A stretch of DNA of 64,000 bases from Alphaproteobacteria bacterium (GTDB lineage Bacteria; Pseudomonadota; Alphaproteobacteria; UBA828). The notes under the pieces were generated by a model. It saw only the letters and a list, made by a program, of their open reading frames with translations, made no database searches and had not been told where the DNA came from. Each line of letters begins with the position of its first letter. Position 1 is the stretch's first letter. Location of the stretch: positions 192,001-256,000 of the forward strand of contig CAXXMU010000006.1 in assembly GCA_963667785.2 (NCBI GenBank), in the 5' to 3' direction. Below are positions 61-20,629 of this stretch, one piece after another. Position numbers and translations under genes: made by a program.

Positions 61-75
61 GCGCAAACGGCGGAT

Positions 76-2130: not shown

Positions 2131-2187
2131 CCCCGCGTTCTCGCTCGTGTCATTGGGATTGGCGGCCGTGAGGCCGCCAATCCTGCT

Positions 2188-3321: not shown

Positions 3322-3367
3322 TGTCGTGTGCTGGAGCCGACGATGAATAGTCCCTGCGTGTCCCTTT

Positions 3368-3455
3368 CCGTCATGGCCGGGCATGTCCCGGCCATCCATG
3401 CTCCCTCGCCGCACTTGGCGCATGTGGATGCCGGGAACAAGTCCGGGCATGACGG
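3368..3455. repeat. CGTC-tagged palindromic REP-type doublet, copy 1
   Basis: CGTCATGGCCGGGCATGTCCCGGCCATCCA...TGGATGCCGGGAACAAGTCCGGGCATGACG; near-identical arms at 44924-45009. Confidence 0.85.
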
Positions 3456-3509
3456 TGGGAGGAAAGCGCTGTTCGTGCGTATTTCCGCTCAAGCTCTCCA
3501 GGCGGGGCC

Positions 3510-4436: not shown

Positions 4437-4517
4437 CGGCGGGCGGGTGGACAGGCGCCGCCGCCTCGGCTACCTCACCGGGGCCGGCGGGCGCGACGCG
4501 GGAGGCGAAGCGGCACC

Positions 4518-5582: not shown

Positions 5583-5632
5583 CCCGGGACCGCGCGCACG
5601 CCCGCCGCCGGCCGCACGCCGAGAACGAGAGA

Positions 5633-6631
5633 ATGCGCGACGCCGCTCCGCCCTGCTACGCCGCCAGGCTGAACTCCTTCAAGGTCGGCGCCGAAGCCTA
5701 CTGGCCCGGCAGGAACCGGGTGACGACCGTAGACCTGCTGGAGCGCGCGGCGACGGTGGAGGGTCTCAACGCCGCCGATCTCAACTACCCGGATCACTTC
5801 GAGGGCACGAGCCCGCGGGAGCTCGCCGCCGTGCTCGACCGGCTCGGCATCGGGCTGAACGGCCTCGCCATGCGCTACTACTCGGACCCCGACTTCCGGC
5901 TCGGCGCGCTCACCAATCCCGACCCCGTCCGGCGGCGGAAGGCCATCGACCTCACCCGGCGCGGTCTCGACACCCTCGCCGAGATGGGCGGGACGCTGAT
6001 GACGCTCTGGCTCGGCCAGGACGGCTTCGACTATCCCTTCCAGGCCGACTACGGGCGGATGTGGGACGACACCATCGCGGCCGTTCGCGAGATCGCCGGG
6101 CACAACCCGGAGATCGACATCGCGCTCGAGTACAAGCCCGACGAGCCGCGCAGCTACTCCCTCATGCCCGACGTGGGCACGACCCTGCTCGCGATCCGCG
6201 AGGCGGGGGCGGCGAACCTCGGCGTCACGCTCGACTTCGCGCACGTCCTCTATGCCGGCGAGATGCCGGCGCACGCGGCCTGCCTCGTGGACCGCCACTC
6301 CCGCCTGCTCGGCATCCAGCTCAACGACGGCTACGGCAAGCGCGACGACGGCCTGATGGCGGCGACCGTCCACCCCGTTCAAACCGTCGAACTGCTGGTG
6401 GCGCTGGGCCGCTGCGGCTACGGGCGCGCGATCTATTTCGACACGTTCCCCGACACCGGCGGGCTCGACCCGGTGGCGGAGTGCCGGGCCAACATCGAGA
6501 CCATCGAGCGCCTGCAGGAGGTCGCCGCATCGCTCGCAGATGACGAGCGCCTGGCACGGGCGATCGCCCGACACGACGCGACGGCGAGCCAGCGGATCGT
6601 GGCCGCCGCGCTCTACGGAGGGCGCCGTTGA
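5633..6631 (+). CDS. Xylose-isomerase-like TIM-barrel sugar isomerase
   Basis: WLGQDG, EYKPDEPR, TLDFAH, QLND and YFDTFP metal-binding motifs of the xylose isomerase family. Confidence 0.85.
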   Translation: MRDAAPPCYAARLNSFKVGAEAYWPGRNRVTTVDLLERAATVEGLNAADLNYPDHFEGTSPRELAAVLDRLGIGLNGLAMRYYSDPDFRLGALTNPDPVRRRKAIDLTRRGLDTLAEMGGTLMTLWLGQDGFDYPFQADYGRMWDDTIAAVREIAGHNPEIDIALEYKPDEPRSYSLMPDVGTTLLAIREAGAANLGVTLDFAHVLYAGEMPAHAACLVDRHSRLLGIQLNDGYGKRDDGLMAATVHPVQTVELLVALGRCGYGRAIYFDTFPDTGGLDPVAECRANIETIERLQEVAASLADDERLARAIARHDATASQRIVAAALYGGRR

Positions 6632-7584
6632 GCGGCGGGGTGGTCGTCGTCGGCTCCCTGCATCTGGACGTCGTCGTCACCGCGCCGCGCCTGCCCGCCC
6701 CGGACGAGACCGTCATGGGAGAGGCGGTCACGCTCGTGTGCGGAGGCAAGGGCGGCAACCAGGCGGTCGCTGCGAGCCGCCACGGCGCGCCGACCGCCAT
6801 GCTGGGGCGCGTGGGCGGCGACGTCTTCGCGGCAGCGCTCGTCGACAATCTCCGCGCGGCCGGCGTCGACACCTCCCTGATCCAGCAGGACGAGGCGGCC
6901 ATGTCGGGCCTCAGCGTCGCGGTCGTCGGCGCCGACGGGGAATACGGTGCGGTGGTGGTCTCGGCCGCCAATCGAGGGCTCTCTGCGGACGGCTTCGCGC
7001 TGCCGGAGGGCGCCCGCGTCTTCGTCCTGCAGAACGAGGTGCCGGAGGCGGTCAACCGGGCGGTCGCGGCCGAGGCCCGCCGACGCGGCGCGACCGTGGT
7101 GCTCAACGCGGCGCCCATGCGCCCGACGGCGCCGGAGACGATGCACCTCGTGGACCTCCTCATCGTCAACCGCATCGAGGCGGAGGCGTTGTTCGAGACT
7201 CCGATACACGGCGTGAAGGATGCCCTCGCCGCAGCGAAATGGGCCGGGGGCGGATTCGACGGGGAGGCGATCGTCACCCTGGGGAGCGATGGCTTGGTTC
7301 ACCGTGATCGCAGCGGCGCGGTGCGGCACCATGCGGTCCGCCCGGCGCCGGTGGTCTCGGCGCACGGTGCAGGCGACGTGTTCGTGGGCGCGCTCTCCGC
7401 CCGTCTGGCCGTCCCCGCCGCCATGGACGAGGCCATCGCCGACGCCCAGGCTGCCGCCGCCCGCTTCGTGTCGACCCCCCTCGGGGAGCGGGGACTATCG
7501 ATCGCGGCCGGCCCCGCTTCGGTTGTTTCTCGGGCACCTTCAGCCCCTCGCGCCGCCCCAGGCGCTCGACCCGCTTGTCGTTGA
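6628..7584 (+). CDS. PfkB/ribokinase-family carbohydrate kinase; C-terminus runs into an IS fragment
   Basis: GSLHLD, GGKGGNQAVA, LQNE, NAAP, GAGD anion hole; TTG start overlaps upstream TGA. Confidence 0.9.
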   Translation: MSGGVVVVGSLHLDVVVTAPRLPAPDETVMGEAVTLVCGGKGGNQAVAASRHGAPTAMLGRVGGDVFAAALVDNLRAAGVDTSLIQQDEAAMSGLSVAVVGADGEYGAVVVSAANRGLSADGFALPEGARVFVLQNEVPEAVNRAVAAEARRRGATVVLNAAPMRPTAPETMHLVDLLIVNRIEAEALFETPIHGVKDALAAAKWAGGGFDGEAIVTLGSDGLVHRDRSGAVRHHAVRPAPVVSAHGAGDVFVGALSARLAVPAAMDEAIADAQAAAARFVSTPLGERGLSIAAGPASVVSRAPSAPRAAPGARPACR

Positions 7585-7590
7585 CCTGCC
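7507..7590 (-). mobile_element. IS3-family (IS407-group) transposase OrfB internal fragment
   Basis: Minus strand reads QVNDKRVERLGRREGLKVPEKQPKRGR, matching the recalled OrfB motif VNxKRVERIWRREGLKVPxKQPKRGRLW. Confidence 0.8.
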
Positions 7591-7667
7591 GCGGGCAGTC
7601 CTACAGAGCGTGGATGACGTTCGCGGCGAGAGAGACGCAGTAGACCGCGAGACGGATATGGCAGACC

Positions 7668-9839
7668 CTATGCCCTGTTCGGGTAGGTCGGGTGCCCCCA
7701 GATGTGCTTCTCGCTGATGAAGGGAAGCGGATACTGCGGATTGTCCGACTCGAATTCGCGGCCTAGCCGGTGCCCTTCGAACACGGATAACTGGATGAAG
7801 CGCGGCGTGTGGCAGTCCCCCACGTGATAGACCGCCTGCACGTCGTTTTCAGGCCAGTCGTCCTTCCGCGCCTTGAGCGATGTAAACAGCTCGGTTCTCG
7901 ACTGGCGCGCCGTACAGAGGATCACGGTATCGCATTCCAGCATCGTCGTTTCGGTGCCGAGGCGCCTCGGCACGTGGCCTTTTCGCGGCGGCAGCTCGAT
8001 ATCGGCACCGTCGCGATAGGCATACGCGATCTCGACCTTGACCGTGTTGTCGACGGCAAGGGATTCGACCCAGTGAAGCGGGTAGCACTGGATCTCCTTC
8101 TCGTAGAGAAGCCGCTGCAGGTTGGGCCCCTCAAGGGTGTTCTGGCAGAACGGGGCGACCTCGTTGAACTGGGTGACGACGGAGACCTGCTTGCCTCTCT
8201 CCGCCATGATTTCGGCCATCGCGACGCCGGTGAAGTAGCCGTCGCCGTCCAGGATCACCACGCGATCACCGAGTTCCTTTCCGTTCATCACCTGCTCGGG
8301 CGTGCAGAACTGCGGCGCTTCGGCATCGGCGCCCTCGATCGGTCCGAAGTTGACGGCGTTGAGCCCATCCGAGGCCCAACGGGCGCCGACGGCGATCACG
8401 ACCTTGTCAGCTCCGTAGGCAAGCACGCTGTCGGCCGTCATGTCGTCCACGCCGGTGTGCACCTCGACGGTCCTGAGCTTGTCGAGCTGGGTCTGCCGGT
8501 AGCTGATGATGCGGCCCCATTCCGCAAGCCCCGGGTAGCGCATGACCTGGCGGATGTGCCCTCCGATCTCGTCTTCGCGCTCGCGCAGGTGAACGTCGTA
8601 GCCTCGCTCGCCGAGCACGCGCGCGCATTCCATCCCTGCGGGGCCGGCACCCACGACCAGGACCGAACAGGGATTCTCCGCCCTTTCGAACTCTTCGGGA
8701 TGCCAGCCCCGCCGGTACTCCTCCATCGCCGTCGCGTTCTGGGTGCAGATGAGCGGGGCCTCCAGGTTGAACTGTGAGACGCAGATGTTGCAGCCGATGC
8801 ACTCCCGGATGTCGTCTGTCCTGCCTTCCCTGATCTTGCGTGGCAGAAACGGATCGGCGATCGACGGCCGCGCGGCGCCGATCAGGTCCGCCTCGCCGGC
8901 GCGGATGATGCGCACCATGTCGTCCGGGCTGGTGACCCGTCCCACGCCGACTACGGGGACATTCGTCACTTCTTTGACCGCCTTGGTGGCCCAGGTCTGA
9001 TAGGCGGGCTCGAAGAAGCGCGAGGGGCCGGCGTCGTTGCCCCACTCCATGAAGTACGAGATTTTGATGTTCCAGAGATCGCACACGCCTTCACGCGTGA
9101 CCAACTCCACGAACTTGAGGCCCTCCTCCAATTCCAGCCCCGCCGGCCCCAGCAAATTGTCGATCGCGATGCGCGTGCCGACGGCGACGCGATCGCCCAC
9201 GGCGCGCTTGAGAGCCGCCATGGTCTCCAGCCAGAAGCGGGCGCGGTTCTCGAACGAGCCGCCCCAGCGGTCGGTGCGCTTGTTGTACATCGGCTGGAGA
9301 AACTGGGTCGGAAGCGAGGAATCCGAGCCGACGATGTCGATGTAGTCGAAGCCCGCGTCCTCGGACAGTTTGGCGGCATCGACATACATCTGAATGAGCT
9401 CGCGGATGTCGTCTTCGTCGCACTCGTGGCAGTAGTTCTGATAGGCCGTTTCCGACGGCATCTGGCTGGGGCCGCGGGCGATCCCGAGGGTTTCGCGCAC
9501 CGGCGCGTGCGCGCCGCCGTACCAGAGCTGAATACCGGCCAGAGCACCGTGCCGATGCACGCTCTCGGTCGTGTGTCGCAGATTGATGACGTCGCCTTCG
9601 TCCCATAGACGCACGCCGATGTGGGGCGTGTCGTCGGATTCCGGGCTGATTGCGCAGTATTCGACGCAAACGACTCCCCAGCCGCCCTCGGCCTTCATCG
9701 CGCGAAAGGCAGCCTGAGCGCCGGGTCTCTGGGAGCCTGCGCCGTTGCAATGAGGAACCTGGAAGAATCGATTGGGAGCCTGCTTTGGCCCTATTCGAAC
9801 GGGCTCGAACAGGACGTCATACGTCGGATTGCGCGTCAT
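7668..9839 (-). CDS. Trimethylamine/histamine-dehydrogenase-family iron-sulfur flavoprotein
   Basis: NRFFQVPHC (Cys for covalent FMN), AEGGW, ESDD...LWDEGD, EWGNDAGPSRF, CIGCNIC...CTQN 4Fe-4S motif, EEYRRGWHPE, VGAGPAG; ATG 9839. Confidence 0.9.
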   Translation of the reverse strand: MTRNPTYDVLFEPVRIGPKQAPNRFFQVPHCNGAGSQRPGAQAAFRAMKAEGGWGVVCVEYCAISPESDDTPHIGVRLWDEGDVINLRHTTESVHRHGALAGIQLWYGGAHAPVRETLGIARGPSQMPSETAYQNYCHECDEDDIRELIQMYVDAAKLSEDAGFDYIDIVGSDSSLPTQFLQPMYNKRTDRWGGSFENRARFWLETMAALKRAVGDRVAVGTRIAIDNLLGPAGLELEEGLKFVELVTREGVCDLWNIKISYFMEWGNDAGPSRFFEPAYQTWATKAVKEVTNVPVVGVGRVTSPDDMVRIIRAGEADLIGAARPSIADPFLPRKIREGRTDDIRECIGCNICVSQFNLEAPLICTQNATAMEEYRRGWHPEEFERAENPCSVLVVGAGPAGMECARVLGERGYDVHLREREDEIGGHIRQVMRYPGLAEWGRIISYRQTQLDKLRTVEVHTGVDDMTADSVLAYGADKVVIAVGARWASDGLNAVNFGPIEGADAEAPQFCTPEQVMNGKELGDRVVILDGDGYFTGVAMAEIMAERGKQVSVVTQFNEVAPFCQNTLEGPNLQRLLYEKEIQCYPLHWVESLAVDNTVKVEIAYAYRDGADIELPPRKGHVPRRLGTETTMLECDTVILCTARQSRTELFTSLKARKDDWPENDVQAVYHVGDCHTPRFIQLSVFEGHRLGREFESDNPQYPLPFISEKHIWGHPTYPNRA

Positions 9840-10018
9840 CGCCTTGCCCTCGCATGTATCGCCTGCATCCCACGGCATCCAAGCATGACGCGGCCCGCAT
9901 TCGGATGCAAAATGCCGACCGGGAGAAAGCGCCGGTACAGCCTCGACCATCCGGCGATCCCCCGGGGCCGGCAGTCGTACGACGCGACCGCGCCGATCCC
10001 TGGGAAGGAGCTTGAACG

Positions 10019-11341
10019 ATGGCCCGCTCCAACGACGATCTGAGCCAGCGCGACACCGCGGCGATTGCGGAGATTCAGAAGCTCCGCTTCAACCCGCTGG
10101 CGGCCCGCGGCGGCAGCGGCTCCTACCTCACCAGCGAGGACGGCCGGCGCATCCTCGATCTCTCGGCGTCCGCGACCGCCGCGAGCCTCGGCTACGCCCA
10201 CCCGGCAGTGACCGAAGCGGTGACCAGGGCGCTCACCGACATGGCGGGTGCGAGCCTCTTGATGTACCCGAACGAGTCGGCCGCCGCGCTCGCCGAAGCG
10301 TTGCTCCAGGTCACGCCGGGTAGTGGCGAGCGGCGCGTCTGGTTCGGCCATTCCGGCTCGGACGCGAACGATGCCGCGGCCCGCGTGCTGGAGGCGGCCA
10401 CCGGCCGCCCCCGCTTCATCTCGTTCATCGGCTCCTATCACGGCGGGGTCGCAGGCTCGATGGCGATCTCGGGCCATACCGCGATGACCCACACCCTGCC
10501 GCGACCGGGCCTGGTGCTGCTGCCCTATCCCGACCCGTACCGGCCGCGCTTCTCGGCGGACGACGTGCTCGACATGCTGGACTACCAGTTCGAAACCACG
10601 TGTCCGCCGGAACAGGTCGCCGCCGTCTTCATCGAGCCCATCATGTCCGACGGCGGGCTCATCGTGCCGCCCGCAGGCTTCCTGAAGGCGCTGGAGGAGC
10701 GCTGCCGGCGACACGGCATTCTCACGGTGCTCGACGAGGTCAAGGTCGGCTGCGGGCGCAGCGGGCTGTTCCACGCCTTCAGTCACGAGGGCCTGGAGCC
10801 CGACATGGTGGTGCTCGGCAAGGGGCTGGGCGGCGGCCTGCCGCTCTCCGCCGTGATCGGGCCCGCGGACGTTCTGGACCACCGCCCCGCCTTCGCCATC
10901 CAGACCACCGGAGGCAATCCGGTCTGCACCGCCGCGGGCCTCGCCGTGCTGCGCACCATTCTCGACGAGGACCTTCCCGATCACGCCGCGCGCATGGGCA
11001 AGCAACTGGCGGACGGCCTGCGGGCGCTGGGCGAACGACACGCGATGATCGGCGATGTGCGCGGCCGCGGGCTCGCGATCGGTGTCGACCTGGTGCGGGA
11101 CCGCGAGAGCAAGGCGCCGGTCGACGCCACCACCACGGCCAAGGTGATCCTGCGCGCCTACGAGCTTGGCGCGAGCTTCATCTATGTCGGGCTTGCCGCC
11201 AACGTGCTGGAAATCACGCCACCCCTGAACTTGAGCGACGCAGAACGCGGCGAGGGGCTTGCCATCATTGACCGGGCCCTCACCGATGTCGCCGAGGGCC
11301 GCGTCTCCGACGAGGCGGTGCAGGCCTACATGAACTGGTGA
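10019..11341 (+). CDS. Class III PLP enzyme, alpha-amino-epsilon-caprolactam/amino-acid-amide racemase-like
   Basis: QKLRF, WFGHSGSDAN, LPYPDPYRP, IEPIMSDGG, DEVKVG (Lys instead of the usual Gln), LGKGLGGGLPLSAV, terminal Trp; all as recalled for Achromobacter obae ACL racemase. Confidence 0.8.
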   Translation: MARSNDDLSQRDTAAIAEIQKLRFNPLAARGGSGSYLTSEDGRRILDLSASATAASLGYAHPAVTEAVTRALTDMAGASLLMYPNESAAALAEALLQVTPGSGERRVWFGHSGSDANDAAARVLEAATGRPRFISFIGSYHGGVAGSMAISGHTAMTHTLPRPGLVLLPYPDPYRPRFSADDVLDMLDYQFETTCPPEQVAAVFIEPIMSDGGLIVPPAGFLKALEERCRRHGILTVLDEVKVGCGRSGLFHAFSHEGLEPDMVVLGKGLGGGLPLSAVIGPADVLDHRPAFAIQTTGGNPVCTAAGLAVLRTILDEDLPDHAARMGKQLADGLRALGERHAMIGDVRGRGLAIGVDLVRDRESKAPVDATTTAKVILRAYELGASFIYVGLAANVLEITPPLNLSDAERGEGLAIIDRALTDVAEGRVSDEAVQAYMNW

Positions 11342-11498
11342 GCGACCGCCCCGCGCGGCGCGCATTGACGGGACTGAGGACGTGACATTGGTGAGACGTC
11401 CGGGCTACCGTCGGATTCGATGCTTCGAGCATCATTTCCCCAACGAACAAGAAAATATCGTCGGTACAACTGACGTGAACAAGAAAGGGAGGTCAACG

Positions 11499-12893
11499 AT
11501 GTCGATAATCAACAAGCTTGCCCTCGGAGCCGGCGCCGCTGCGCTGGCCGCCGTTCTGGCCGGGGCGCCCCTGGATGCCAACGAGGCGCACGCCTGGTCG
11601 CTGGAGGAGGCGGCCAAGCCCTATGCCGGAACGGAAGTCCGCGGCATCTGCGACGGTTACGCGCCGTGCATGTCCTATGTCGCGCTGACCGACGAATTCG
11701 AGCAGCTCACCGGCATCAAGGTGAACTTCGAGATCGCCGACCTCGCGGCGATTCAGACCCAGTTCCTGACGGACCAGATCACCGCATCGCAGTATTACGA
11801 TATGGTCGAGGTGGTATCGTTCTCCACGGGCGTGTTTCCGGCCCATGGTTTCGTGCACGACTGGTCCACGTTTACCGACAATCCGGCGCTGAAGGATCCG
11901 GACGTCAATTTCGCGACTGACCTCGTCCCGGCGCTCTACGAAGTTTCGACTCTTCACGACGGCAATCTCTACAGCGTGCCAACAAAGTACGTGCTGGCCT
12001 TCATGGTCTACCGCAGCGACCTCGTAACCGACGAGGAGAAGGCCAACTTCGAAGCGGCGAACGGCTACGCCATGCCGCTACCGCCGACCACCTGGCAGCA
12101 CTATCACGACCTCGCCGCCTTCTACACGCGCGAGAAGGGCGAGACGCTGGCGGGGCAGGTGCTGGAGAGCGACTTCTACGGCACGATCGTGCCCTTCAAG
12201 CGCCACCTCGCCGTGCTCTACGACTACGAGCGCATCCTGATCAACATGGGCGGCCGCTATCTGGACGAGAACGGCAACGTCGCGCTCGACGAAGGCGATG
12301 CCGCGGTCAAGGCGCTCGAGTTCATGCTCTCGCTCCGGCCCTACTCGAACCCCGGCTACATGGAAGCGACCTGGGACGAAGAGTACTCGGAGATGTGCGC
12401 CGGCAATCTGTTCACCATGTTCACCTGGGGCGATACCACGCCCTACCTCGAGATTCCGGAAGACTGCCCCGGTTCGGCCGGAAAGATGACCTACTATGCG
12501 CATCCCGGCATGGGGCTCTCCATCGCCGAGGCCAACAACTGGATGATTCCGAAGAGCGCCCAGAACCCGGAAGCCGCGTTCCTCTTCGCCCAGTGGATCA
12601 ACCGCAAGGACATCCAGGCCCGGACCATGCCGGCGGGCGGCAATCCGACCCGGAGCGACGTCTACGCAATGCCCGAGTGGAGCGACCCGAACTGGGTGAA
12701 CATCCAGCGCGACCAGCTCTATCGGTGGCTTGAGGAGAACGACAAGCTGCTGCCCCGTCCGAATCCGCCGACGTGGCTCGCCTGGACGGAGATCTTCACG
12801 GAAGAGCTCTCCAACGCCGGCGCCGGGAACCAGGATGCGGCGACGACAATCGCCAACATCGCGCAGCGGATGCGCGACGTGGCGGAGCAATAA
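11499..12893 (+). CDS. CUT1-type ABC transporter substrate-binding protein
   Basis: ATG 11499 after GGGAGG; Sec signal ending AHA-W; SLEEAAKPYAG, YRSDL, PTTW, EAAFLFAQW. Confidence 0.88.
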   Translation: MSIINKLALGAGAAALAAVLAGAPLDANEAHAWSLEEAAKPYAGTEVRGICDGYAPCMSYVALTDEFEQLTGIKVNFEIADLAAIQTQFLTDQITASQYYDMVEVVSFSTGVFPAHGFVHDWSTFTDNPALKDPDVNFATDLVPALYEVSTLHDGNLYSVPTKYVLAFMVYRSDLVTDEEKANFEAANGYAMPLPPTTWQHYHDLAAFYTREKGETLAGQVLESDFYGTIVPFKRHLAVLYDYERILINMGGRYLDENGNVALDEGDAAVKALEFMLSLRPYSNPGYMEATWDEEYSEMCAGNLFTMFTWGDTTPYLEIPEDCPGSAGKMTYYAHPGMGLSIAEANNWMIPKSAQNPEAAFLFAQWINRKDIQARTMPAGGNPTRSDVYAMPEWSDPNWVNIQRDQLYRWLEENDKLLPRPNPPTWLAWTEIFTEELSNAGAGNQDAATTIANIAQRMRDVAEQ

Positions 12894-12908
12894 GGGCGGG
12901 GGTGTCGC

Positions 12909-13020
12909 AGCCCAGGGAAACCTGCTTCGGGGGGCCGAACCGGCCCTCGGGACCCCGACCTGGGCTCGCAGGATAGGCTGAGTGCCGTCCCCGGTGTTGC
13001 GCCCGGCAACGCCGGGGACC
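12909..13020 (+). other. Stem-loops downstream of the SBP gene (likely mRNA stabiliser or partial terminator)
   Basis: AGCCCAGG...CCTGGGCT and GTCCCCGGTGTTGC...GCAACGCCGGGGAC inverted repeats. Confidence 0.5.
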
Positions 13021-13101
13021 GGCTGCGTTGACGGCGGCGCAGCGTCGCTGTGAGCGTGGGCTCGGGTCAAGCCGTCCCTGAACTCCGAGAAGGGCCTTGT
13101 C

Positions 13102-14622
13102 ATGGCAGACGTCCATTACGACGCGATCATCGTCGGCGCGGGTCATAACGGGCTGGTCGCCGCCTTCTACCTCGCGCGCGCCGGACGGAAGGTGCTGCTC
13201 TGCGAGCGCCGGTCGTTCGTGGGCGGTGCCTGCGCCACCGAAGAGCTGTTCGATGGCTATCGGGTGTCGTCCTGTGCCTACGTGATGTGGAAGCTGGAGC
13301 AAAAGGTGCGCGACGACATGGGGTTGGACAGGCGCGGCCTGACCATGCATCTGATCGACCCGCCGGTGTTCTTTCCCTACGAAGACGGTTCGCACGCGTT
13401 CCTGCACTACGACATGGATCGCACGGTGGAATCGATCGCGCGGCTGAACCGCCATGATGCCGCGCGATTTTCCGACTGGGTGGACCTCTGGACCCGGGCA
13501 ACGGGGCTGGTGCAGCCCTACATGCTGACCGATCCGCCGACACTCTCCGACGTCTGGGAACGCGCCAAGGCAAGCGGGGACGAAGCCGTGCTGGAGCGCT
13601 TTCTCACCAGCTCGCTCGTCGATCTCGCGGCCGACCACTTCGAGGACGAGCGCGTGCGCGCGATGATGCTCTACGTGCAGGATATCGCCGATCCCCATGC
13701 GCCGGGCAGCGCCTGGGCCGAGGTCTTTTTCCAGTTCGGCGCCGCGGGCGGACACGGCTACTACGTCGTCGAAGGGGGCATGGGCTCGATCACGCAATAC
13801 ATGGCCGATGCCGTGACCGAGCAGGGCGGCGAAATCCGTTGCGACGCGCCGGTCGCGCAGGTCTTGGTGGAGAACGGCGTGGCCAGCGGTGTGCGCCTCG
13901 AATCGGGCGAGGAGATCAGCGCAGGCATCGTGGTGTCGAACGCCGATCCCAAGCGCACCTATCGCACCCTCTTTTCCGCCGATGACCTGCCCGGCGACCT
14001 CGCCAGGCGCGTGGAACGGCTCAAGACCGGAACAGGCTACTTCAAGTTCCACTGCGTGATGGACGACGTTCCGGATGTCTCGGGCTACCTCGATGGGTAC
14101 GACGGCCCGCCCATCTCCTACATCATGATCGCGCCCAGCCTCGACCACTACGCGCGGGCGGGGGCTGAGATGCGCGCAGGCGTGCCCTGCAGCGAGCCGA
14201 TCTGCCACCTTCAGGTGCCGACGCTCTACGACGGGACCCTGACCGATCGCGACGGCCATATCTGCTCGATCTGGGGGCTCTATGCGCCGGCGCACCTGGC
14301 GGAGGGCACGTGGGATGAGCGCCGCGAGGAGGTGGGCGAAGGCGTCATCGATTACGTGACGCGGTTCGTCCCCAACTTCCGCTCCGCGATTCGCGAATGG
14401 ATGTTCATGAGCCCGTGGGACATCGAGCAGCGCGCCGGCATCACCGACGGCGCGATCCGCCATCTCGACGTGGTGCCGAGCCAGTTCCTGAACGGGCGGC
14501 AAAGCTACGACACGCCGATCGGGAACTTCTATCTCTGCGGCGGCGGTACCCATCCGGCCGGTGAGGTCACCGGCGCGCCGGGCCACAATGCCGCGCATCA
14601 CATCTTGCGGACCAACGCCTAG
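13102..14622 (+). CDS. Phytoene-dehydrogenase-like (PYROXD2/COG1233) FAD oxidoreductase
   Basis: IVGAGHNGLVAA, ERR..VGGAC.TEE, GGMGSIT, VSNADP, YLCGGGTHPAGEVTGAPGHNAA. Confidence 0.88.
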   Translation: MADVHYDAIIVGAGHNGLVAAFYLARAGRKVLLCERRSFVGGACATEELFDGYRVSSCAYVMWKLEQKVRDDMGLDRRGLTMHLIDPPVFFPYEDGSHAFLHYDMDRTVESIARLNRHDAARFSDWVDLWTRATGLVQPYMLTDPPTLSDVWERAKASGDEAVLERFLTSSLVDLAADHFEDERVRAMMLYVQDIADPHAPGSAWAEVFFQFGAAGGHGYYVVEGGMGSITQYMADAVTEQGGEIRCDAPVAQVLVENGVASGVRLESGEEISAGIVVSNADPKRTYRTLFSADDLPGDLARRVERLKTGTGYFKFHCVMDDVPDVSGYLDGYDGPPISYIMIAPSLDHYARAGAEMRAGVPCSEPICHLQVPTLYDGTLTDRDGHICSIWGLYAPAHLAEGTWDERREEVGEGVIDYVTRFVPNFRSAIREWMFMSPWDIEQRAGITDGAIRHLDVVPSQFLNGRQSYDTPIGNFYLCGGGTHPAGEVTGAPGHNAAHHILRTNA

Positions 14623-14650
14623 GGCCCCGGCCTGTCCCGAGGCGCCTCGC

Positions 14651-14746
14651 ATGAATGCATCGTTCCCGGATCAGGCGAGAGTGGTGATCGTCGGCGCGCC
14701 GTCGAAGGCGATGGAGGCGCGGCGCGGCGACGCGGGCTCGCCATGA
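14651..14746 (+). pseudogene. Remnant N-terminus of a dimethylglycine/sarcosine-dehydrogenase (GcvT-family) gene
   Basis: MNASFPDQARVVIVGA resembles the P..ARVVIIGGG start of this family but breaks within the GxG motif; 31 codons, ending in ATGA overlap with the permease. Confidence 0.55.
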
Positions 14747-15672
14747 GCAACGGTGCGTCGAGCGGAGGCGTCCTGGCCGATTCCGCGTCGACCAGAACCT
14801 TCCTCTGGGTCTGCATGGGCCCGGTTCTGGTGTTCCTGCTCATCGTGGCGATCGCGCCCATGACGCTCGCGATCGTGGACAGCCTCCGCGAGCTCTCGCT
14901 CACCAGCCTGACGAAGCGGGGCCAGTTCATCGGGCTCGACAACTACCGCGATCTGATCGCAACCGATTCGAAGTTCTACGCGGCGATCGCGCACACGGCG
15001 ATCTTCATGGCCGTCGTGGTGCCGGTGGAGTTCGTGCTCGGCCTGATGATCGCGCTGTGGCTCAATCGCGAGTTCGCCGGCCGCCGGCTGGTGCTGACGA
15101 TCATCATGATCCCCACCATGATCGCACCGGTGGTGGTGGGCATGATCTGGCGTTTCTTCCTGATGCCGAGCTTCGGTGTGCTCACCGTCTACCTCAACCG
15201 GATCGGGCTGTTCGAGGACACGAGTGTCTTCTCGGGCCCGGTGACCGCGTTCGGCGCCCTGATGATCATCGACATCTGGGAGTGGACCCCCTTCATCATG
15301 CTGATCATGCTGGCGGGGCTTTCGGCGGTCCCGAGAGCGCCGATTGAGGCGGCGACCCTGGACGGGGCGTCGCGCTGGCAGATTCTGCGCCACATCGAGC
15401 TCCCGATGCTGGTGCCGCTGATCATCATCGCGCTCATGCTGCGCGCAATCGACGCGAGCAAGATCTTCGACACGATCCATGTGCTGACCGGCGGCGGGCC
15501 GGGAAACGCAACGGAAGTCATCGCCACCTTCGCCTATCGCACCAATTTCCTGACGTGGAACCTGGGCTACGGTGCGGCGGTCTGTCTGGTGCTCGCGTTC
15601 GCGTCGCTCGTGATGGCGGCGCTCTTCTACAAGATCGTGAGCGGCAAGGCGCCGACTCAGGAGGCGGCCTAG
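14743..15672 (+). CDS. CUT1 ABC permease (MalF-like)
   Basis: GLDNY, DIWEWTPF, EAATLDGASRW, TGGGPG. Confidence 0.93.
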   Translation: MSNGASSGGVLADSASTRTFLWVCMGPVLVFLLIVAIAPMTLAIVDSLRELSLTSLTKRGQFIGLDNYRDLIATDSKFYAAIAHTAIFMAVVVPVEFVLGLMIALWLNREFAGRRLVLTIIMIPTMIAPVVVGMIWRFFLMPSFGVLTVYLNRIGLFEDTSVFSGPVTAFGALMIIDIWEWTPFIMLIMLAGLSAVPRAPIEAATLDGASRWQILRHIELPMLVPLIIIALMLRAIDASKIFDTIHVLTGGGPGNATEVIATFAYRTNFLTWNLGYGAAVCLVLAFASLVMAALFYKIVSGKAPTQEAA

Positions 15673-16488
15673 ATGCTGCGCCGCAACTGGGTCACCTTCC
15701 TCGTTCCTCTGGTCCTCTTGCTGGGCGTCGCGCTGATTCCCTATATCTGGATTCTGCTCGCGAGCTTCAAGGAACGGGTGGACTTGATTACGCCCGATCC
15801 GAAGTGGGTATTCGAGCCCACGGTCGTCAATTATGTCGAAATCTTCGGAAGGGGCTTCGACGTGTTTCTCCTGAACTCGATCATTATCGGGTTCTCGAGC
15901 ACCGCGTTGACCGTGATTGTCGGCACCATGGCGGCCTACGGCTTCTCCCGCTTCAAGATCCCGGCGGGGAATCACCTGTTCTTCCTGATCCTGGCGACGC
16001 GGCTCGGGCCGCCGGTCGCCTACGCCTTGCCGATGTACCTGGTTTTCGACGCCTTCGGCCTCGTCAACAGCCATTTCGCGGTCATACTCGCCCACGCGAC
16101 CTTCAATCTCGTCCTCGTGGTCTGGATGATGCGGTCGTTCTTCAACGACGTCCCGCGCGAGATCGAGGAGGCCGCTTACCTGGATGGTTGTGGGCATTTT
16201 CGGGTGTTCTGGCGCTTCGCGATCCCGATGACGTACCCCGGCCTCGTGGCGGTCATGATCTTCGTGTTCATCTTTTCGTGGAACGAGTTGCTGTTCGCCC
16301 TGATTCTCTCAGGCGGGGAGACACGAACGCTCCCGGTGATGATACCGTCCCTCGTGCTGCACACAGGCACGCTCTGGGGGCAGGTCGCCGCAGCCTCGAT
16401 CATTCAGAGCATCCCCGTGCTCATCTTCATCTTCTTCATTCAGAAGAAGCTGGTGCAGGGCCTGACCTTCGGCGCGGTCAAGGGCTGA
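15673..16488 (+). CDS. CUT1 ABC permease (MalG-like)
   Basis: EEAAYLDG, SWNELLFA, GLTFGAVKG. Confidence 0.93.
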   Translation: MLRRNWVTFLVPLVLLLGVALIPYIWILLASFKERVDLITPDPKWVFEPTVVNYVEIFGRGFDVFLLNSIIIGFSSTALTVIVGTMAAYGFSRFKIPAGNHLFFLILATRLGPPVAYALPMYLVFDAFGLVNSHFAVILAHATFNLVLVVWMMRSFFNDVPREIEEAAYLDGCGHFRVFWRFAIPMTYPGLVAVMIFVFIFSWNELLFALILSGGETRTLPVMIPSLVLHTGTLWGQVAAASIIQSIPVLIFIFFIQKKLVQGLTFGAVKG

Positions 16489-16522
16489 GGCACGCGCGCC
16501 TCCCGCGGCGGTCGGGAGAGCC

Positions 16523-17602
16523 TCAGGCGCGCAGGCGCTCGCCCGTTTCGGTGTCGAACGCGAGCACCTTCACGGGATCGGTGAAGAGCCTGACGGTATC
16601 GCCGTAGCGGATCGCATCGTTGCGGATCGTCTTGGCGGTAAGGGCCGGCCCCTCGGACGAGAGCTCGAGGATCGTCTCGGCACCCAGATGCTCGACGGCC
16701 TCGACCCGACAGTCCAGCCCGACCGCGTCGCCATCGGATCCGGGAGCGAGGAATTCCGGGCGGATACCGAGCGTGACGGCTCGCCCCTGCGCCGCAGCGT
16801 GGGTCGGCGGCAGCCCGAGTGCGAGTTCGCCGGCGCGAAAGACCGGCGCGCCGTCGGAGGGCTCCACCACGCCGTCGATCAGGTTCATGGTCGGGCTGCC
16901 GATGAAGCCCGCGACGAACATGTTGTCCGGGTTGTCGTAGACGGCGAGCGGCGTGCCGATTTGCTGGATGCGTCCTTCGTTCATGACGACGATGCGATCG
17001 CCCATGGTCATCGCCTCGGTCTGATCGTGGGTGACGTAGATCATCGTCGCGGAGAGCCTGTGATGAAGCTTGATCAACTCGCCGCGCATCGCCATGCGCA
17101 GCTTGGCGTCCAGATTGGACAGCGGCTCGTCGAACAGGAAGACCGCCGGATCCCTCACGATCGCCCGCCCCAGAGCGACCCGCTGCTGCTGCCCGCCCGA
17201 CAGGGTCTTGGGCTTGCGCGACAACTCCTCGGTGATGCCGAGGATCGTCGCCGCGTCCCGAACGCGCCGGTCGATCTCGTCGCGCGGCACCTTCTTCAGT
17301 TTCAGGGCGAAGCCCATGTTGTCGGCGACCGACATGTGCGGGTAGAGGGCGTAGGACTGGAACACCATCGCGACATCGCGGTCCTTGGCGTGGACGCTGG
17401 CGACGTCGCGATCGCCGATGTAGATGCTTCCCGAGGTGACCGCCTCCAATCCAGCGATCATGCGCAGGCATGTCGTCTTGCCGGAGCCCGAGGGACCGAC
17501 CAGGACCACGAACTCGCCGCTTCCGATGCTGAGATCGACGGCGTCGACGGCGGCCACGGCGCCGAAGCGCTTGGTGAGGCCTTCGAGCCGCACCGCGCTC
17601 AT
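16523..17602 (-). CDS. CUT1 ABC ATP-binding protein
   Basis: GPSGSGKT, VFQSYALYPH, LSGGQQQR, DEPLSNLD; ATG 17602 overlaps upstream TGA (TGATG). Confidence 0.95.
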   Translation of the reverse strand: MSAVRLEGLTKRFGAVAAVDAVDLSIGSGEFVVLVGPSGSGKTTCLRMIAGLEAVTSGSIYIGDRDVASVHAKDRDVAMVFQSYALYPHMSVADNMGFALKLKKVPRDEIDRRVRDAATILGITEELSRKPKTLSGGQQQRVALGRAIVRDPAVFLFDEPLSNLDAKLRMAMRGELIKLHHRLSATMIYVTHDQTEAMTMGDRIVVMNEGRIQQIGTPLAVYDNPDNMFVAGFIGSPTMNLIDGVVEPSDGAPVFRAGELALGLPPTHAAAQGRAVTLGIRPEFLAPGSDGDAVGLDCRVEAVEHLGAETILELSSEGPALTAKTIRNDAIRYGDTVRLFTDPVKVLAFDTETGERLRA

Positions 17603-17760
17603 CACAGGGCTCCCAGGTAGATCATCTCGGCGGCCACGAAGAGTGCCACACCCCAGAAGCGGACCTCGCCGGGCGTGAGCCATCGCTTGCGTGTGTTCCA
17701 GATTCCCAGAAGAAACTGAAACGGCGCGCAGACGGCAAAAACGATGATGTGCTCCAGCAC
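17602..17760 (-). CDS. Small membrane protein, 52 aa, about 2 TM segments
   Basis: GTG start; VLEHIIVFAVCAPFQFLLGIW...FWGVALFVAAEMIYLGAL; stop overlaps the ATPase start. Confidence 0.55.
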   Translation of the reverse strand: MLEHIIVFAVCAPFQFLLGIWNTRKRWLTPGEVRFWGVALFVAAEMIYLGAL

Positions 17761-17768
17761 GGCCGGGC

Positions 17769-17966
17769 CTACGGAGTGTTCTTGTTCGCCCGGAGGACAA
17801 ACAGGAACGGCACGCTCGCGATCAGCGGGAAGGCGAACAGGCCGATCGGCACGACGATGAAAGGCGAAATGTCGGCCTCGATCATCGCGCCGCAGCCGAC
17901 GACGACCATGAAAGAATAGAGAACTGCCCAAAGTGAGGCGCGAAGGTTGGGGCGATCGAGAGGCAT
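17769..17966 (-). CDS. Small membrane protein, 65 aa, about 2 TM segments
   Basis: GAGGTG RBS, ATG 17966; LWAVLYSFMVVVGCG and FIVVPIGLFAFPLIASVPFLFVL hydrophobic segments. Confidence 0.6.
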   Translation of the reverse strand: MPLDRPNLRASLWAVLYSFMVVVGCGAMIEADISPFIVVPIGLFAFPLIASVPFLFVLRANKNTP

Positions 17967-18277
17967 GTTGCGAGCACCTCGCCCGGTGCGGCTCGGCGTG
18001 CCGGCGGGCGCTTGTTCGGCCGCGCCGACCATAGCATCGGACCCTTGTACGGTATACCGCCACGGCTCGGACGCCCCACGGAACACCTCGCCGCCGCATC
18101 GTGCGTTGCTACGCTGCCCCCCACCGGCCTCCCTGTGCCCGACGGACAGAGACCTGAGCTCATTTCCGCCAGGGCGCGCCAGTTGTCCGTGGAGTCCGGC
18201 AAGAGGATGAACACGGTCGAGGCCGTGCATCAGGCGCCCGCCGGCGGCGCGCGCGACGCGCAGGACACGGAGTCCAG

Positions 18278-18395
18278 GCGGGATTCGGCGGGACGGGCGG
18301 GATTATCCCAGGTCTCCATCCCAAGACCCCCCGAGGCGGGATTCGCCGGGATAGCAAGGGATTCCGTTGGGATATCGGGGCGGGTTTCCGGGATG
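18278..18395. repeat. Helically phased GGGAT direct-repeat array (putative protein-binding site)
   Basis: GGGAT at 18280, 18299, 18338, 18348, 18358, 18369, 18390; GGGAC at 18290; inverted ATCCC at 18305 and 18318. Confidence 0.65.
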
Positions 18396-18533
18396 AAGCC
18401 TGCGATCGCGAGATGGCGTCGGGCGACGTGCCCCCTCGCCCCGTCTGACCCGATCCGTTCGTTCACGCGCTGCATGGCGCGATCGTCGCACCCGCGCCCA
18501 GCGCCGTGCACCGCGCAATGGTCCGGGGTGTCG

Positions 18534-18625
18534 CTCGCGCCCGAAGGGTCGCGAGCGCGGAAGAAGAGTCCGCGCCCGAGGGATCGCGAGCGCGAGAGAA
18601 GAGTCCCTCGCGCCCGCAGGAGCCG
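18534..18625. repeat. About 36-bp imperfect tandem repeat (2.5 units) with internal hairpin
   Basis: CGCGCCCGA(A)GGG(A)TCGCGAGCGCG..AGAAGAGTCC twice plus a partial third unit, just past the livM stop. Confidence 0.6.
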
Positions 18626-18638
18626 CGGAAGCGGGACG

Positions 18639-19694
18639 CTAGATTCGGAGGCGCTCTCTCGTGATGGCGATGAGACGCGCCATGCCGTGCGGCTCGAGGA
18701 TCAGGATCACGATGATGAGGCCGCCGAAGATGATCACCTCGATGTGCTTGGCGAGGTCGACGGCCAGGTCGATGCCGAGGATCGGGTTCAGGTTGGTGAG
18801 GAAGATCGGCAGGATGGTGATGAAGGCGGCGCCGATGATGGAGCCGGAGATCGAGCCGAGGCCGCCCACGATGATCATGAAGAGCACGAGGAAGGAGACG
18901 TTGACGTCGAAGGCGATGGTCTCGGCGCTGCCTAGGTAGAGGAAGACGAAGAGCGCGCCGGCGACGCCGCAGAGGTAGGAGCTCACGCCGAAGGCGAGCA
19001 GCTTGGTGCGGAGCAGCGGGATGCCGACGATCTCGGCGGCCACGTCCATGTCGCGTACAGCCATCCAGGCGCGGCCGAAGCGGCTCCGCATCAGATTCCA
19101 GGAGAAGAAGACGAAGACCGCCAGCAAGACGAGCGCCACCAGATAGCGCACCTCGGCAGCGGCCTCGGGGCCTGTGATCATGACGCCGGCGAAAGTGCGG
19201 GGCGGCGCCGTGATCGTGCCCGACGGGTTGTCGTTGTAGAACCACGGCACCCGGTTGAAGAGCCAGATCAGGAAGAACTGCGCGGCCAGCGTCGCCACCG
19301 CCAGGTAGAAGCCCTTGATGCGCAGGCTCGGCAGACCGAAGAGGATGCCGACGCCGGCGGCGAAGAAGCCCGAGATGAAGAAGACGGCGATGATGTCGAG
19401 CCCGGGCCACGCGGTCGTCATCTTGAAGGCGGCATAGGCGCCGACGGCCATGAACCCGCCGGTGCCGAGGGAGAGCTGGCCGGCGAAGCCGGTGAGCAGA
19501 TTGAGCCCCAGCGCCGCGAGCGCGAAGATCAGGAACGGGATCAGGATCGCCTGGAGCCAGTACTCGTTCGCCAGCGTCGGCACGGCGAAGAGCGCGAGCA
19601 GCGAGATCACGGTCACGAAGACCGTGTTGATCGTGCGCGAGCGGGTCGCGAAGAAGGTGGCGTAGAGGTCTGTCAAATGAGTGAGCACGGTCAC
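18639..19694 (-). CDS. livM: Branched-chain amino acid-type ABC permease (LivM-like)
   Basis: LGLNLLTGFAGQLSLG, GFYLAVATLA, FGRAWMAVRD; GTG 19694 overlaps livH stop. Confidence 0.88.
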   Translation of the reverse strand: MTVLTHLTDLYATFFATRSRTINTVFVTVISLLALFAVPTLANEYWLQAILIPFLIFALAALGLNLLTGFAGQLSLGTGGFMAVGAYAAFKMTTAWPGLDIIAVFFISGFFAAGVGILFGLPSLRIKGFYLAVATLAAQFFLIWLFNRVPWFYNDNPSGTITAPPRTFAGVMITGPEAAAEVRYLVALVLLAVFVFFSWNLMRSRFGRAWMAVRDMDVAAEIVGIPLLRTKLLAFGVSSYLCGVAGALFVFLYLGSAETIAFDVNVSFLVLFMIIVGGLGSISGSIIGAAFITILPIFLTNLNPILGIDLAVDLAKHIEVIIFGGLIIVILILEPHGMARLIAITRERLRI

Positions 19695-20629
19695 ACCCGC
19701 TCGATGATCTTCTCGCCGAACAGGCCCTGGGGCCGGAACATGAGGACCAGCATCGCCAGCATGTAGGCGAACCAGTTCTCGATCGCGCCGCCGATCACCG
19801 GGCCCCAGTAGACCTCGGCGATCTTCTCGCCGAGCCCGATGATGAGTCCGCCGACGATGGCGCCGGGAACAGAGGTGAGCCCGCCCAGGATGAGCACGGG
19901 CAGCGCCTTCAGCGCGATCAGCGAGAGGCTGAACTGCACGCCGCTCTTCGCCCCCCACATGATGCCGGCGACGATGGCGACGATGCCGGCCACCGACCAG
20001 ACGATGATCCAGATGGTCCTGAGCGAGATCCCGAGGGAGAGCGCGGCCTGCGGATCGTCGGCCACGGCCCGGAGCGCGCGCCCCATGGGCGTGTGCTGGA
20101 AGAGCAGCGCCAGCGCCGCCACCAGCACCGCCGCCACCAGCGCGGCGATGAGGTCGAATTCGTTGAGCAGCATGCCGCCGACGTCGACCGGCGAATTCGG
20201 GATGCCGAGGTCGAGCGCCTTCACGTTCGAGCCCCAGGCCCACTCGCCGGCGCCTTCGAGCAGGAAGCTCAGACCGATGGTCGCCATGAAGAGCGTGATC
20301 GGCGGCTGGTTGATCAGCGGGCGCAGCATCCCGCGCTCGATCGCGAAGGCGAGCCCGACCATGACGATCGCCGTGACCGGCAACGCGCCCCAGATCGGCA
20401 GGCCATGCTCTATCAGTCCCACCAGGGTCAGCGCCGCGAACAGCACCATCGCGCCCTGCGCGAAGTTGAACACCTGCGAGGCCTTGAAGATGAGCACGAA
20501 GCCGAGCGCCACCAGCGAGTACATCACGCCGGTGAGCAGGCCGGAGACCGCGACCTCGGCCAGGAAGATCGGGAAGTCGATCATGTCGAGGAAGGGTGCG
20601 ACGAAGAAGTCCCAGAGAAACTCCATCAC
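19691..20629 (-). CDS. livH: Branched-chain amino acid-type ABC permease (LivH-like)
   Basis: YSLVALGFVLIFKAS..FNFAQG, GRALRAVAD, RPQGLFG. Confidence 0.9.
   Translation of the reverse strand: MMEFLWDFFVAPFLDMIDFPIFLAEVAVSGLLTGVMYSLVALGFVLIFKASQVFNFAQGAMVLFAALTLVGLIEHGLPIWGALPVTAIVMVGLAFAIERGMLRPLINQPPITLFMATIGLSFLLEGAGEWAWGSNVKALDLGIPNSPVDVGGMLLNEFDLIAALVAAVLVAALALLFQHTPMGRALRAVADDPQAALSLGISLRTIWIIVWSVAGIVAIVAGIMWGAKSGVQFSLSLIALKALPVLILGGLTSVPGAIVGGLIIGLGEKIAEVYWGPVIGGAIENWFAYMLAMLVLMFRPQGLFGEKIIERV

Follow-up and report, generated by a model that had tools for sequence, protein, structure and literature searches.

What does a compact block of seven genes encoding two flavoproteins, a pyridoxal 5'-phosphate (PLP) enzyme and an ATP-binding cassette (ABC) importer act upon, and is the pathway that it suggests complete? 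The block lies between about 7.7 and 18.1 kb of the 64,000-nucleotide stretch of alphaproteobacterial DNA analysed here (the window; positions 192,001 to 256,000 of contig CAXXMU010000006.1). A first-pass annotation, made from the sequence alone, had read it as an island that imports and degrades a chiral N-alkyl or cyclic amine, a substrate class that was a reasonable guess. Compared with the nearest relative, the block is not an intact pathway but a deletion derivative: window 7683-18120 spans 10.4 kb, what is left of a catabolic island of about 17 kb. The island, carried by a sponge-associated bacterium with uncultured Alphaproteobacteria as its relatives, is real and rare, and its substrate is probably an N-methylated amine or amide. 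The features of the window copy are listed below, with domains and families assigned using Pfam, NCBIfam and sequence comparison with solved structures.

7668..9839, minus strand: amine dehydrogenase of the trimethylamine dehydrogenase (TMADH) family, binding flavin mononucleotide (FMN), 4Fe-4S and ADP; 723 residues from the probable start Met38 (Pfam, 1djn alignment)
9840..10018: divergent intergenic region between the TMADH-like and racemase genes (coordinates from inferred starts)
10019..11341, plus strand: PLP enzyme, homologue of amino-acid-amide and alpha-amino-epsilon-caprolactam (ACL) racemases; 440 residues (Pfam Aminotran_3)
11499..12893, plus strand: periplasmic substrate-binding protein (SBP) of a small uncharacterised CUT1-like family; 464 residues including the signal peptide (SBP_bac_8/SBP_bac_1)
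13102..14622, plus strand: COG1233 or phytoene-desaturase-like oxidoreductase binding flavin adenine dinucleotide (FAD); 506 residues (Pfam Amino_oxidase/NAD_binding_8)
14651..14746, plus strand: deletion scar, a chimeric mini-open reading frame (mini-ORF) of 31 codons in which a DAO-GcvT start is fused to a kinase end
14743..15672, plus strand: ABC permease 1, UgpA/MalF-like (BPD_transp_1; NCBIfam)
15673..16488, plus strand: ABC permease 2, MalG/UgpE-like (BPD_transp_1; NCBIfam)
16523..17602, minus strand: convergent ABC ATPase of the UgpC/MalK type with an OB/TOBE tail; 359 residues, the open frame continuing to 17800
17603..18120: non-coding right end of the island; window 17600-18120 is 87% identical to contig C9 of the relative genome G001, and its ORFs have no Pfam match
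18280..18612: dispersed repeat resembling repetitive extragenic palindromes (REP-like), at the right boundary, with a 35-nt tandem pair at 18536-18605

The earlier gene list (a divergent pair of TMADH-like and PLP enzymes, an SBP, an FAD oxidoreductase, two permeases and a convergent ATPase) agrees with these Pfam and NCBIfam assignments.

The evidence for a deletion lies in the 120 bases between the stop codon of the COG1233 gene and the start of permease 1. Here the mini-ORF joins approximately the first 15 codons of a DAO-GcvT gene, of the dimethylglycine dehydrogenase (DMGDH)-like kind, in frame to the last codons of a kinase gene, and its stop codon overlaps the permease start (ATGA). The nearest relative of the island, locus L009 of genome G001, is about 91% identical at the DNA level and collinear on both sides of this point, with window 7683-14696 corresponding to L009 4580-11596 and window 14713-17886 to L009 18354-21518. 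The 6.76 kb of L009 missing from the window, with the junction at about 14696-14713, hold four genes.

First: an 814-residue DAO-FAO_M-GCV_T protein, DMGDH-like
Second: a short-chain dehydrogenase/reductase (SDR) on the opposite strand, best model 3-hydroxybutyrate dehydrogenase
Third: a second DMGDH-like demethylase of 806 residues
Fourth: a choline/ethanolamine-kinase-like protein of 316 residues (226 bits to the choline/ethanolamine kinase family protein 3dxq)

The intact island of L009 consists of the TMADH-like gene, divergent from an operon of racemase, SBP, COG1233, DMGDH-like protein, SDR (opposite strand), second DMGDH-like protein, kinase and two permeases, and then the convergent ATPase. 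Since remnants of both gene ends survive in the scar, the event is read as a deletion in the lineage of the window and not as an insertion in the relative; the ATGA overlap of the kinase gene with the permease start is preserved across it. Contigs from four public sequencing runs of two studies bridge the junction, and for this reason the scar is not an assembly error. The bridging contigs measure 766 nt in runs X1 and X2, both labelled sponge metagenome (two mismatches and one single-base insertion), and 352 nt in X3 and X4 (no mismatch). The fusion ORF, the gap relative to L009 and the bridging contigs together establish the GcvT-family scar of the first-pass annotation as real. Of the four domains that define a DMGDH (DAO, FAO_M, GCV_T and GCV_T_C), the window retains some 15 N-terminal codons; full-length DMGDH-like genes are present in L009 and in a second cluster of the window genome (cluster B).

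What remains of the island is intact and under purifying selection. All seven genes are full length with no internal stops, and pairwise dN/dS values relative to L009 fall between 0.03 and 0.14 (TMADH-like 0.126, racemase 0.091, COG1233 0.14, permease 1 0.027, permease 2 0.033 and ATPase 0.106), these being averages over the whole divergence from L009 from which selection since the deletion is not separable. Synonymous divergence (dS) from L009 is 0.14-0.18 for the SBP and COG1233 genes, roughly half that of the other five (0.35-0.45), a difference that may reflect recombination or gene conversion inside the island. An Rfam scan of window 5000-21000 gave no family at the gathering score, and a scan of the divergent region 9840..10018 for sigma-70-like and terminator-like sites found none, which says nothing either way.

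Synteny with the relative is limited to the segment from window 7683, just past the 3' end of the TMADH-like gene, to about 18120. The corresponding parts of G001 are spread over three contigs: C108 carries the left flank of the window, C9 the island and C29 the right flank (from 18637). Because the flanks lie on other contigs there, the block is a discrete unit set in different surroundings in two genomes that are about 91% identical, and its earlier designation as an island is upheld. The IS3 fragment once placed at its left edge was not recovered: Pfam gave no match for ORF 7220..7717 or the other edge ORFs, rve (PF00665) and HTH_Tnp_1 (PF01527) gave no match at E<=0.01 in the window's part of the genome, and a blastn search of the genome with window 7400-7800 revealed no repeated element. 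The GC content at third codon positions (GC3), which had been judged by eye to set the block apart, ranges from 0.83 to 0.91 in the island (mean 0.874) and is indeed lower than in the immediate flanks (0.86-0.97). It is nevertheless not atypical of the contig, where 814 ORFs have a mean of 0.878 (standard deviation 0.086) and 34% of 808 seven-gene runs are as low or lower. A foreign origin deduced from codon usage was accordingly rejected; with the IS3 fragment absent and the codon usage ordinary, a recent foreign origin is not supported.

The REP-like repeat at 18280-18612, with palindromes and its 35-nt tandem pair, separates the island from a Liv-type branched-chain ABC operon on the minus strand (window 18639-23628). 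Copies of 216-342 bp with 77-84% identity are found on contigs C2, C5 and C6, and there are many shorter copies, also in G001. Both flanks consist of ordinary transport and sugar genes; the left one (window 1-7584) has a ribokinase-like PfkB kinase, a TIM barrel resembling xylose isomerase and a second CUT1-type system, whose SBP has 621 residues. To the left of the relative's island, L009 1-4300 holds several ORFs that match no family beside genes for a TIR-domain and a DUF2971 protein, and looks like a defence-type neighbourhood.

The TMADH-like protein contains Oxidored_FMN, OYE-like second (OYE-like_second_a-b) and Pyr_redox_2 domains in Pfam. Its residues 40-757 align with residues 2-719 of the trimethylamine dehydrogenase chain (PDB code 1djn; 802 bits, E 5e-240), and it is collinear with that enzyme through the FMN TIM barrel, the ADP-binding domain and the further alpha/beta domain. 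The open frame reaches 9950 (7668..9950); because similarity begins at residue 40 and a methionine occurs at residue 38, the start is probably Met38, which gives the gene as 7668..9839. The motifs QVPHCNGAG and CIGCNICVSQFNLEAPLIC match TMADH motifs and preserve Cys30 and Cys345/348/351/364 in the 1djn alignment, which we take to be the covalent FMN link (6-S-cysteinyl-FMN) and the 4Fe-4S ligands, respectively. The aromatic bowl of TMADH comprises Tyr60/Trp264/Trp355 and its triad Tyr169-His172-Asp267. Tyr60, Trp264 and Asp267 are kept in the same alignment; the pocket is changed at four positions (His172 to Asp, Tyr169 to Val, Tyr174 to Ser and Trp355 to Phe), so that the bowl has lost Trp355 and the triad His172 and Tyr169. 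A paralogue in the same genome (TMADH60), compared by eye, likewise has Asp at the His172 position and Ser at the Tyr174 position. Since the pocket residues are changed and TMADH60 is alike, we file the protein in the family and not as a trimethylamine enzyme; its substrate is probably a compound other than trimethylamine. An apparent internal stop in TMADH60 was rejected, translation giving an intact 723-residue protein with a TAA upstream of its start. A TMADH/OYE-FadH query against the 4.1-Mb window genome (G000) yielded 18 matches at E<=0.001 and 13 at E<=1e-58; the family is markedly expanded in this genome.

The PLP enzyme is classified by similarity as a homologue of the amino-acid-amide and ACL racemases. 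It scores 645 bits against the amino acid amide racemase (PDB code 6gio) over residues 8-440 and 467 bits against the ACL racemase (PDB code 2zuk), as opposed to at most 220 bits against gamma-aminobutyric acid transaminases, and it retains the PLP-lysine context GKGLGGG. We take the two structures to be those of the Ochrobactrum anthropi and Achromobacter obae enzymes, respectively. A phospholyase reading, prompted by the APH/choline-kinase-family kinase of the intact island, was rejected, the scores against 6tor and 5g4i being 160-163 bits compared with 645 for the racemase. Pairing of such a racemase with an amidase is used in industrial resolutions; we know of no established natural role for the amino-amide or ACL racemases. 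A paralogue with 61% identity is encoded elsewhere in the same genome, directly after an amidase-signature enzyme and before an amidohydrolase. This row (C2:320964-326334, corresponding to locus L146 6965-12335: amidase-signature enzyme, racemase paralogue and Amidohydro_1 protein) adjoins the housekeeping genes rpsB, tsf, pyrH-like and uppS and is possibly an amide racemase-plus-hydrolase unit.

For the COG1233 protein, which is single copy in the window genome, the best NCBIfam match was CrtO at 235 bits (cut-off 1000), and crtI_fam gave 110 bits (cut-off 238). A function as a carotenoid desaturase or ketolase (CrtI/CrtO) was rejected on these scores, and no carotenoid gene was seen in any flank scanned. 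Its atlas neighbours bear the automatic name 'pyridine nucleotide-disulfide oxidoreductase domain-containing protein', which is of the PYROXD2 type, the likeness to PYROXD2 being one of automatic cluster names and not of alignment. Genome-wide association links the human HPS1/PYROXD2 locus to trimethylamine, dimethylamine, asymmetric dimethylarginine and caprolactam in Table 2 of PMC9286311, in which HPS1 is favoured as the causal gene at the locus (PMC9286311). Any connection of this human locus to the island is circumstantial.

The genomic context of COG1233 was compared in a close clade and among distant homologues; genes in the compared loci were called with a GC3-based or longest-ORF caller, by which small genes may be missed and starts misplaced. 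The close clade (at least 68% identity) comprises 12 loci, all from metagenome-assembled genomes (MAGs) and nearly all labelled Alphaproteobacteria. In the 11 loci in which the match covers at least half of the query, the neighbours include a DMGDH-like gene (seven loci), an SDR (six), a TMADH-like gene (five) and a racemase at 60% identity or more (three). Hydrolases also occur in this clade, namely an amidase (L019), an isochorismatase-family protein (L015) and a proline-iminopeptidase-family protein (L011). For the distant homologues (at most 53% identity), two flanking ORFs per locus were scanned with Pfam, covering 94 of 122 ORFs and leaving out the 28 of the 14 most distant loci (L076-L096). 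Amide-bond hydrolases flank 13 of the resulting 47 loci (amidase in six, gamma-glutamyltranspeptidase in five and an amidohydrolase in two more), and DAO oxidases and GFO/IDH/MocA oxidoreductases are found at seven loci each, many of the 47 being related Dehalococcoidia and so not independent.

The importer has a complete CUT1-type build according to Pfam and NCBIfam, with a family-1 SBP, two MalF/MalG-type permeases and an ATPase that bears a MalK-type regulatory tail and matches NF008653 (UgpC) at 454 bits (cut-off 432). The 'sugar-type ABC importer' of the first-pass annotation is therefore correct as a statement of family and fold. The SBP open frame runs from 11382 to 12893 and the signal peptide starts at Met40, so that the gene is placed at 11499..12893; its counterpart in the intact island is 92% identical. 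In the predicted structure (pLDDT 89.6), the listed Foldseek matches are all CUT1 sugar or glycoside binders (TMt 0.75-0.85, identity <=20%), among them MalE3, TMBP, a sophoro-oligosaccharide binder and sulfoquinovosyl binders. The modelled fold is thus rightly called sugar-type; the ligand class is not readable from it, because identity to the solved sugar binders is 20% or less.

The SBP family is small. A search among 5.8 billion proteins gave 172 relatives at E<=1e-10; at E<=1e-30 a match was present in five of 400 other sampled genomes of the class, never with more than 33% identity, and in none of the three sampled genomes of the same family. The window genome contains a single match at E<=1e-30, and a paralogue with 56-58% identity found in relatives (L122-L125) was not found in it. 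Our survey of neighbourhoods covers 34 loci located with a family alignment, 16 of which were scanned with Pfam. Most carry cognate permeases and an ATPase. Among the 34, neighbours include a DMGDH-like gene in 11, a TMADH-like gene in ten, a kinase in seven (by tblastn), an SDR at 55% identity or more in six, an amidase-signature enzyme in four, COG1233 in two and a racemase at 60% identity or more in one; among the 16, a DeoR regulator was found in five, an HAD phosphatase in three and a GMC oxidoreductase in two. Individual loci combine a Rieske oxygenase with DMFase-like and creatinase-like proteins (L121), or MttB with isochorismatase-like and amidase enzymes (L142), and one has a formamidase (L143). 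The recurring partners of the family are accordingly DMGDH-like demethylases, choline-kinase-like kinases, SDRs and DeoR regulators, a set to which the racemase and COG1233 do not belong. The sole locus from a record not labelled as a MAG is L139, on a contig of Albidovulum sediminis FT324 (SBP identity 40%); it holds DMGDH-like, kinase, HAD phosphatase, truncated DeoR regulator and GMC oxidoreductase genes between two IS240-type transposase genes, and may be an experimentally tractable relative.

Do the genes belong together? Co-occurrence in other genomes had been suggested as a check, and it gives a divided answer: the parts recur separately with shared themes, and the full four-part set occurs beyond the window in one genome only. 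TMADH-like, racemase, COG1233 and SBP genes stand together in one of the 34 SBP loci (L113, from the same record as L009), and in a 3.4-kb fragment (L010) the SBP gene adjoins COG1233. The parts are repeatedly tied to two themes, oxidative N-demethylation and amide hydrolysis or racemisation, and C-N bond chemistry on amines and amides, the supposed theme, is a repeated feature of the related loci. The overall impression is that of a mosaic island, with two modules assembled around a dedicated transporter. The triad of TMADH-like protein, racemase and COG1233 is a narrow mosaic, possibly a recent one. No pathway with this combination was found in searches of open-access papers, in keeping with the first impression that it had not been described.

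A paralogous cluster in the same genome bears on what the deletion has cost. Cluster B (C6:761684-772430) has 87-90% DNA identity to, and is syntenic with, loci L011 and L013 of relatives, in which the order is TMADH41, cupin, TMADH60, COG1233b, DMGDH-like protein, kinase, proline-iminopeptidase-family hydrolase, SDR and a Liv-type ABC system. The window genome has seven of these genes intact, with a stub of some 44 codons left of COG1233b and the last 74 residues of LivF; in the relative G001 both clusters are whole (L009 and L013). COG1233, the racemase and the CUT1 transporter survive in the island of the window (cluster A), and the folate-dependent demethylase, kinase, SDR and hydrolase in cluster B. 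Each cluster has lost some transport genes. Together they hold one copy of each enzyme family, the losses being non-overlapping among enzyme families, and the two clusters may now act as one pathway.

We put at about an even chance the full proposal that the block is a mosaic, half-decayed island for the catabolism of an N-methylated amine or amide, derived by deletion from an island of about 17 kb; its substrate class, the order of its steps and the complementation between clusters are what we infer. In this scheme the CUT1-type transporter would import a polar N-methylated amine or amide. The TMADH-like and folate-dependent DMGDH-like enzymes would remove N-methyl or N-alkyl groups by oxidation, with an electron-transfer flavoprotein as the electron acceptor. 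By interconverting the two enantiomers of an intermediate, an alpha-amino amide or lactam, the racemase would make both usable by a stereospecific partner; COG1233 might oxidise the C-N bond or an adjacent C-C bond of that amide, and the kinase and SDR would handle a hydroxyl group. One in-frame deletion removed both DMGDH-like genes, the SDR and the kinase and kept the translational coupling to the permeases. Cluster B, itself without the COG1233 gene and a transporter, would supply intact copies of the lost functions, and the two remnants may amount to one pathway.

Several observations weigh against this proposal. His172 and Tyr169 of the TMADH triad are missing from the TMADH-like enzyme, the reaction of which may differ from N-demethylation. 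Amine and betaine binders are absent among the listed Foldseek matches of the SBP, the fold of which is that of a sugar binder. No regulator, amidase or aldehyde dehydrogenase is present in the island. Among 76 loci with COG1233 at 53% identity or less, a TMADH-like neighbour was found in none, a DMGDH-like neighbour in one and a distant class-III aminotransferase in two; the link between COG1233 and the demethylases holds only within one narrow clade, the MAGs of which are related and do not count as independent. The four-part combination could be a recent fortuitous mosaic, and the loss of genes from both clusters also fits simple decay. The averaging inherent in the dN/dS values, as stated above, counts on the same side.

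Of the other explanations, the one that fares best takes its cue from the transporter, and we consider it unlikely. On this view a sugar- or polyol-amine conjugate is degraded; opines, N-methyl amino sugars or polyols and Amadori-type glycated amino acids or amides would all qualify. Import would be of the sugar type; the kinase, SDR, DeoR regulator and HAD phosphatase would treat the sugar part as a phosphate ester; the TMADH-like, DMGDH-like and COG1233 enzymes would cleave the sugar- or alkyl-nitrogen bond; and the racemase would act on the released amino-acid amide. Such a role would suit permeases and an ATPase of the Ugp/Mal type and an SBP for which all the listed Foldseek matches are CUT1 sugar or glycoside binders and the PDB sequence matches are sugar binders. 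DeoR regulators, which commonly sense sugar phosphates, occur in five and HAD phosphatases in three of the 16 Pfam-scanned SBP loci, and the kinase in seven of 34 by tblastn. However, neither the island nor the scanned loci showed a glycoside hydrolase, a deglycase or a sugar isomerase; the DMGDH-like enzymes have GcvT domains, which suggest that one-carbon (N-methyl) units, and not larger N-alkyl groups, are transferred to folate; and the SBP has at most 20% identity to any solved sugar binder.

The losses themselves suggest a second explanation, which we regard as quite unlikely: the block would be a decaying relic without a present role, left as redundant methylated-amine clusters are shed, with its genes intact since too little time has passed. 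Cluster A lacks 6.76 kb with four genes, cluster B lacks the COG1233 gene and a Liv-type transporter, the SBP paralogue of relatives (56-58% identity; L122-L125) is not found in the window genome and the island has no regulator of its own. Against this, the seven genes are full length without an internal stop and have dN/dS values of 0.03-0.14, the deletion has preserved both the reading frame and the ATGA overlap with permease 1, and the deleted form is present in runs of two studies. The clusters have, moreover, lost different functions, no enzyme family of the module set being lost from both.

Least probable of all is a choline- or glycerophosphocholine-type system, in which a Ugp-like transporter would import a choline ester or phosphodiester, the kinase and phosphatase would act on choline or phosphocholine and the TMADH-like and DMGDH-like enzymes would perform the dimethylglycine and sarcosine steps of betaine breakdown. 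In its favour, the best permease and ATPase matches are UgpA/UgpE/UgpC, the kinase resembles choline kinases (PDB codes 3dxq and 4r77), related loci hold HAD phosphatases, a Rieske oxygenase and members of the choline-dehydrogenase family (GMC oxidoreductases), and the dimethylglycine breakdown of Pseudomonas involves a TMADH-like protein, DgcA. Against it, L009 and the scanned SBP loci show neither a glycerophosphodiesterase nor a betaine-aldehyde dehydrogenase, UgpB is neither among the four PDB sequence matches of the SBP at E<=0.01 nor described among its listed Foldseek matches, the racemase and COG1233 are left without a role and, by established chemistry, a quaternary nitrogen is not attackable by flavin dehydrogenases.

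Returning to an N-methylated amine or amide as the substrate, these compounds rank among the main forms in which marine animals and their microbes exchange nitrogen and carbon, and many of the enzymes that process them are orphans; amide and lactam racemases are known mostly from industrial use. The island, above all in its intact form, unites four orphan or under-explained families in one transcriptional context (the TMADH variant, the racemases, COG1233 and the SBP family), and this single context narrows down the proteins and ligands worth testing jointly. A bolder conjecture, and in our estimation a very unlikely one, is that COG1233 is a C-N oxidoreductase acting on N-methylated alpha-amino amides or aminolactams in partnership with the racemase and the TMADH/DMGDH-type demethylases. 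If true, it would for the first time give biochemistry a hold on a very large family of orphan flavoproteins, whose human member lies at the HPS1/PYROXD2 locus described above, and the rare CUT1-like SBP family would represent a new class of importer, one that takes up methylated nitrogen compounds from sponge or marine sources. The two paralogous clusters, with their paired deletions that do not overlap, also illustrate neatly how redundant pathways are trimmed in a symbiont genome. The value of the island is that of a lead rather than a discovery, the window copy being incomplete and the combination phylogenetically narrow; the relative's intact island, together with the SBP, is the better experimental object.

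The island can be compared with four known systems. The TMADH-like protein shares with the TMADH of Methylophilus methylotrophus W3A1 (PDB codes 1djn and 2tmd) and with histamine dehydrogenase (PDB codes 3k30 and 6de6) full-length collinearity, the three domains, the FMN cysteine and the Fe-S cysteines, and differs from TMADH in the substrate pocket at the four positions described above. COG1233 has the FAD Rossmann fold and Amino_oxidase domain of the CrtO and PYROXD2-like flavoproteins; unlike CrtO, it scores far under the cut-off and has no carotenoid genes nearby, the neighbours of its homologues being amidases, DAO oxidases and gamma-glutamyltranspeptidases. The racemase resembles the 6gio and 2zuk enzymes over nearly its whole length, with the PLP-lysine context kept, whereas its gene shares an operon with a transporter and flavoenzymes in an island without an amidase. 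Known demethylation clusters include those for dimethylglycine and sarcosine dehydrogenases, DgcAB, the N-methylproline demethylase StcD and HpbA in hydroxyproline-betaine breakdown. With the methylated-amine and betaine clusters, its closest described counterparts, the island has in common TMADH-family and, in the intact form, DAO-GcvT demethylases alongside an ABC importer. In contrast to them, it shows no betaine-specific gene, its SBP is of the CUT1 sugar type rather than the betaine type, and it adds a racemase, COG1233, a kinase and an SDR.

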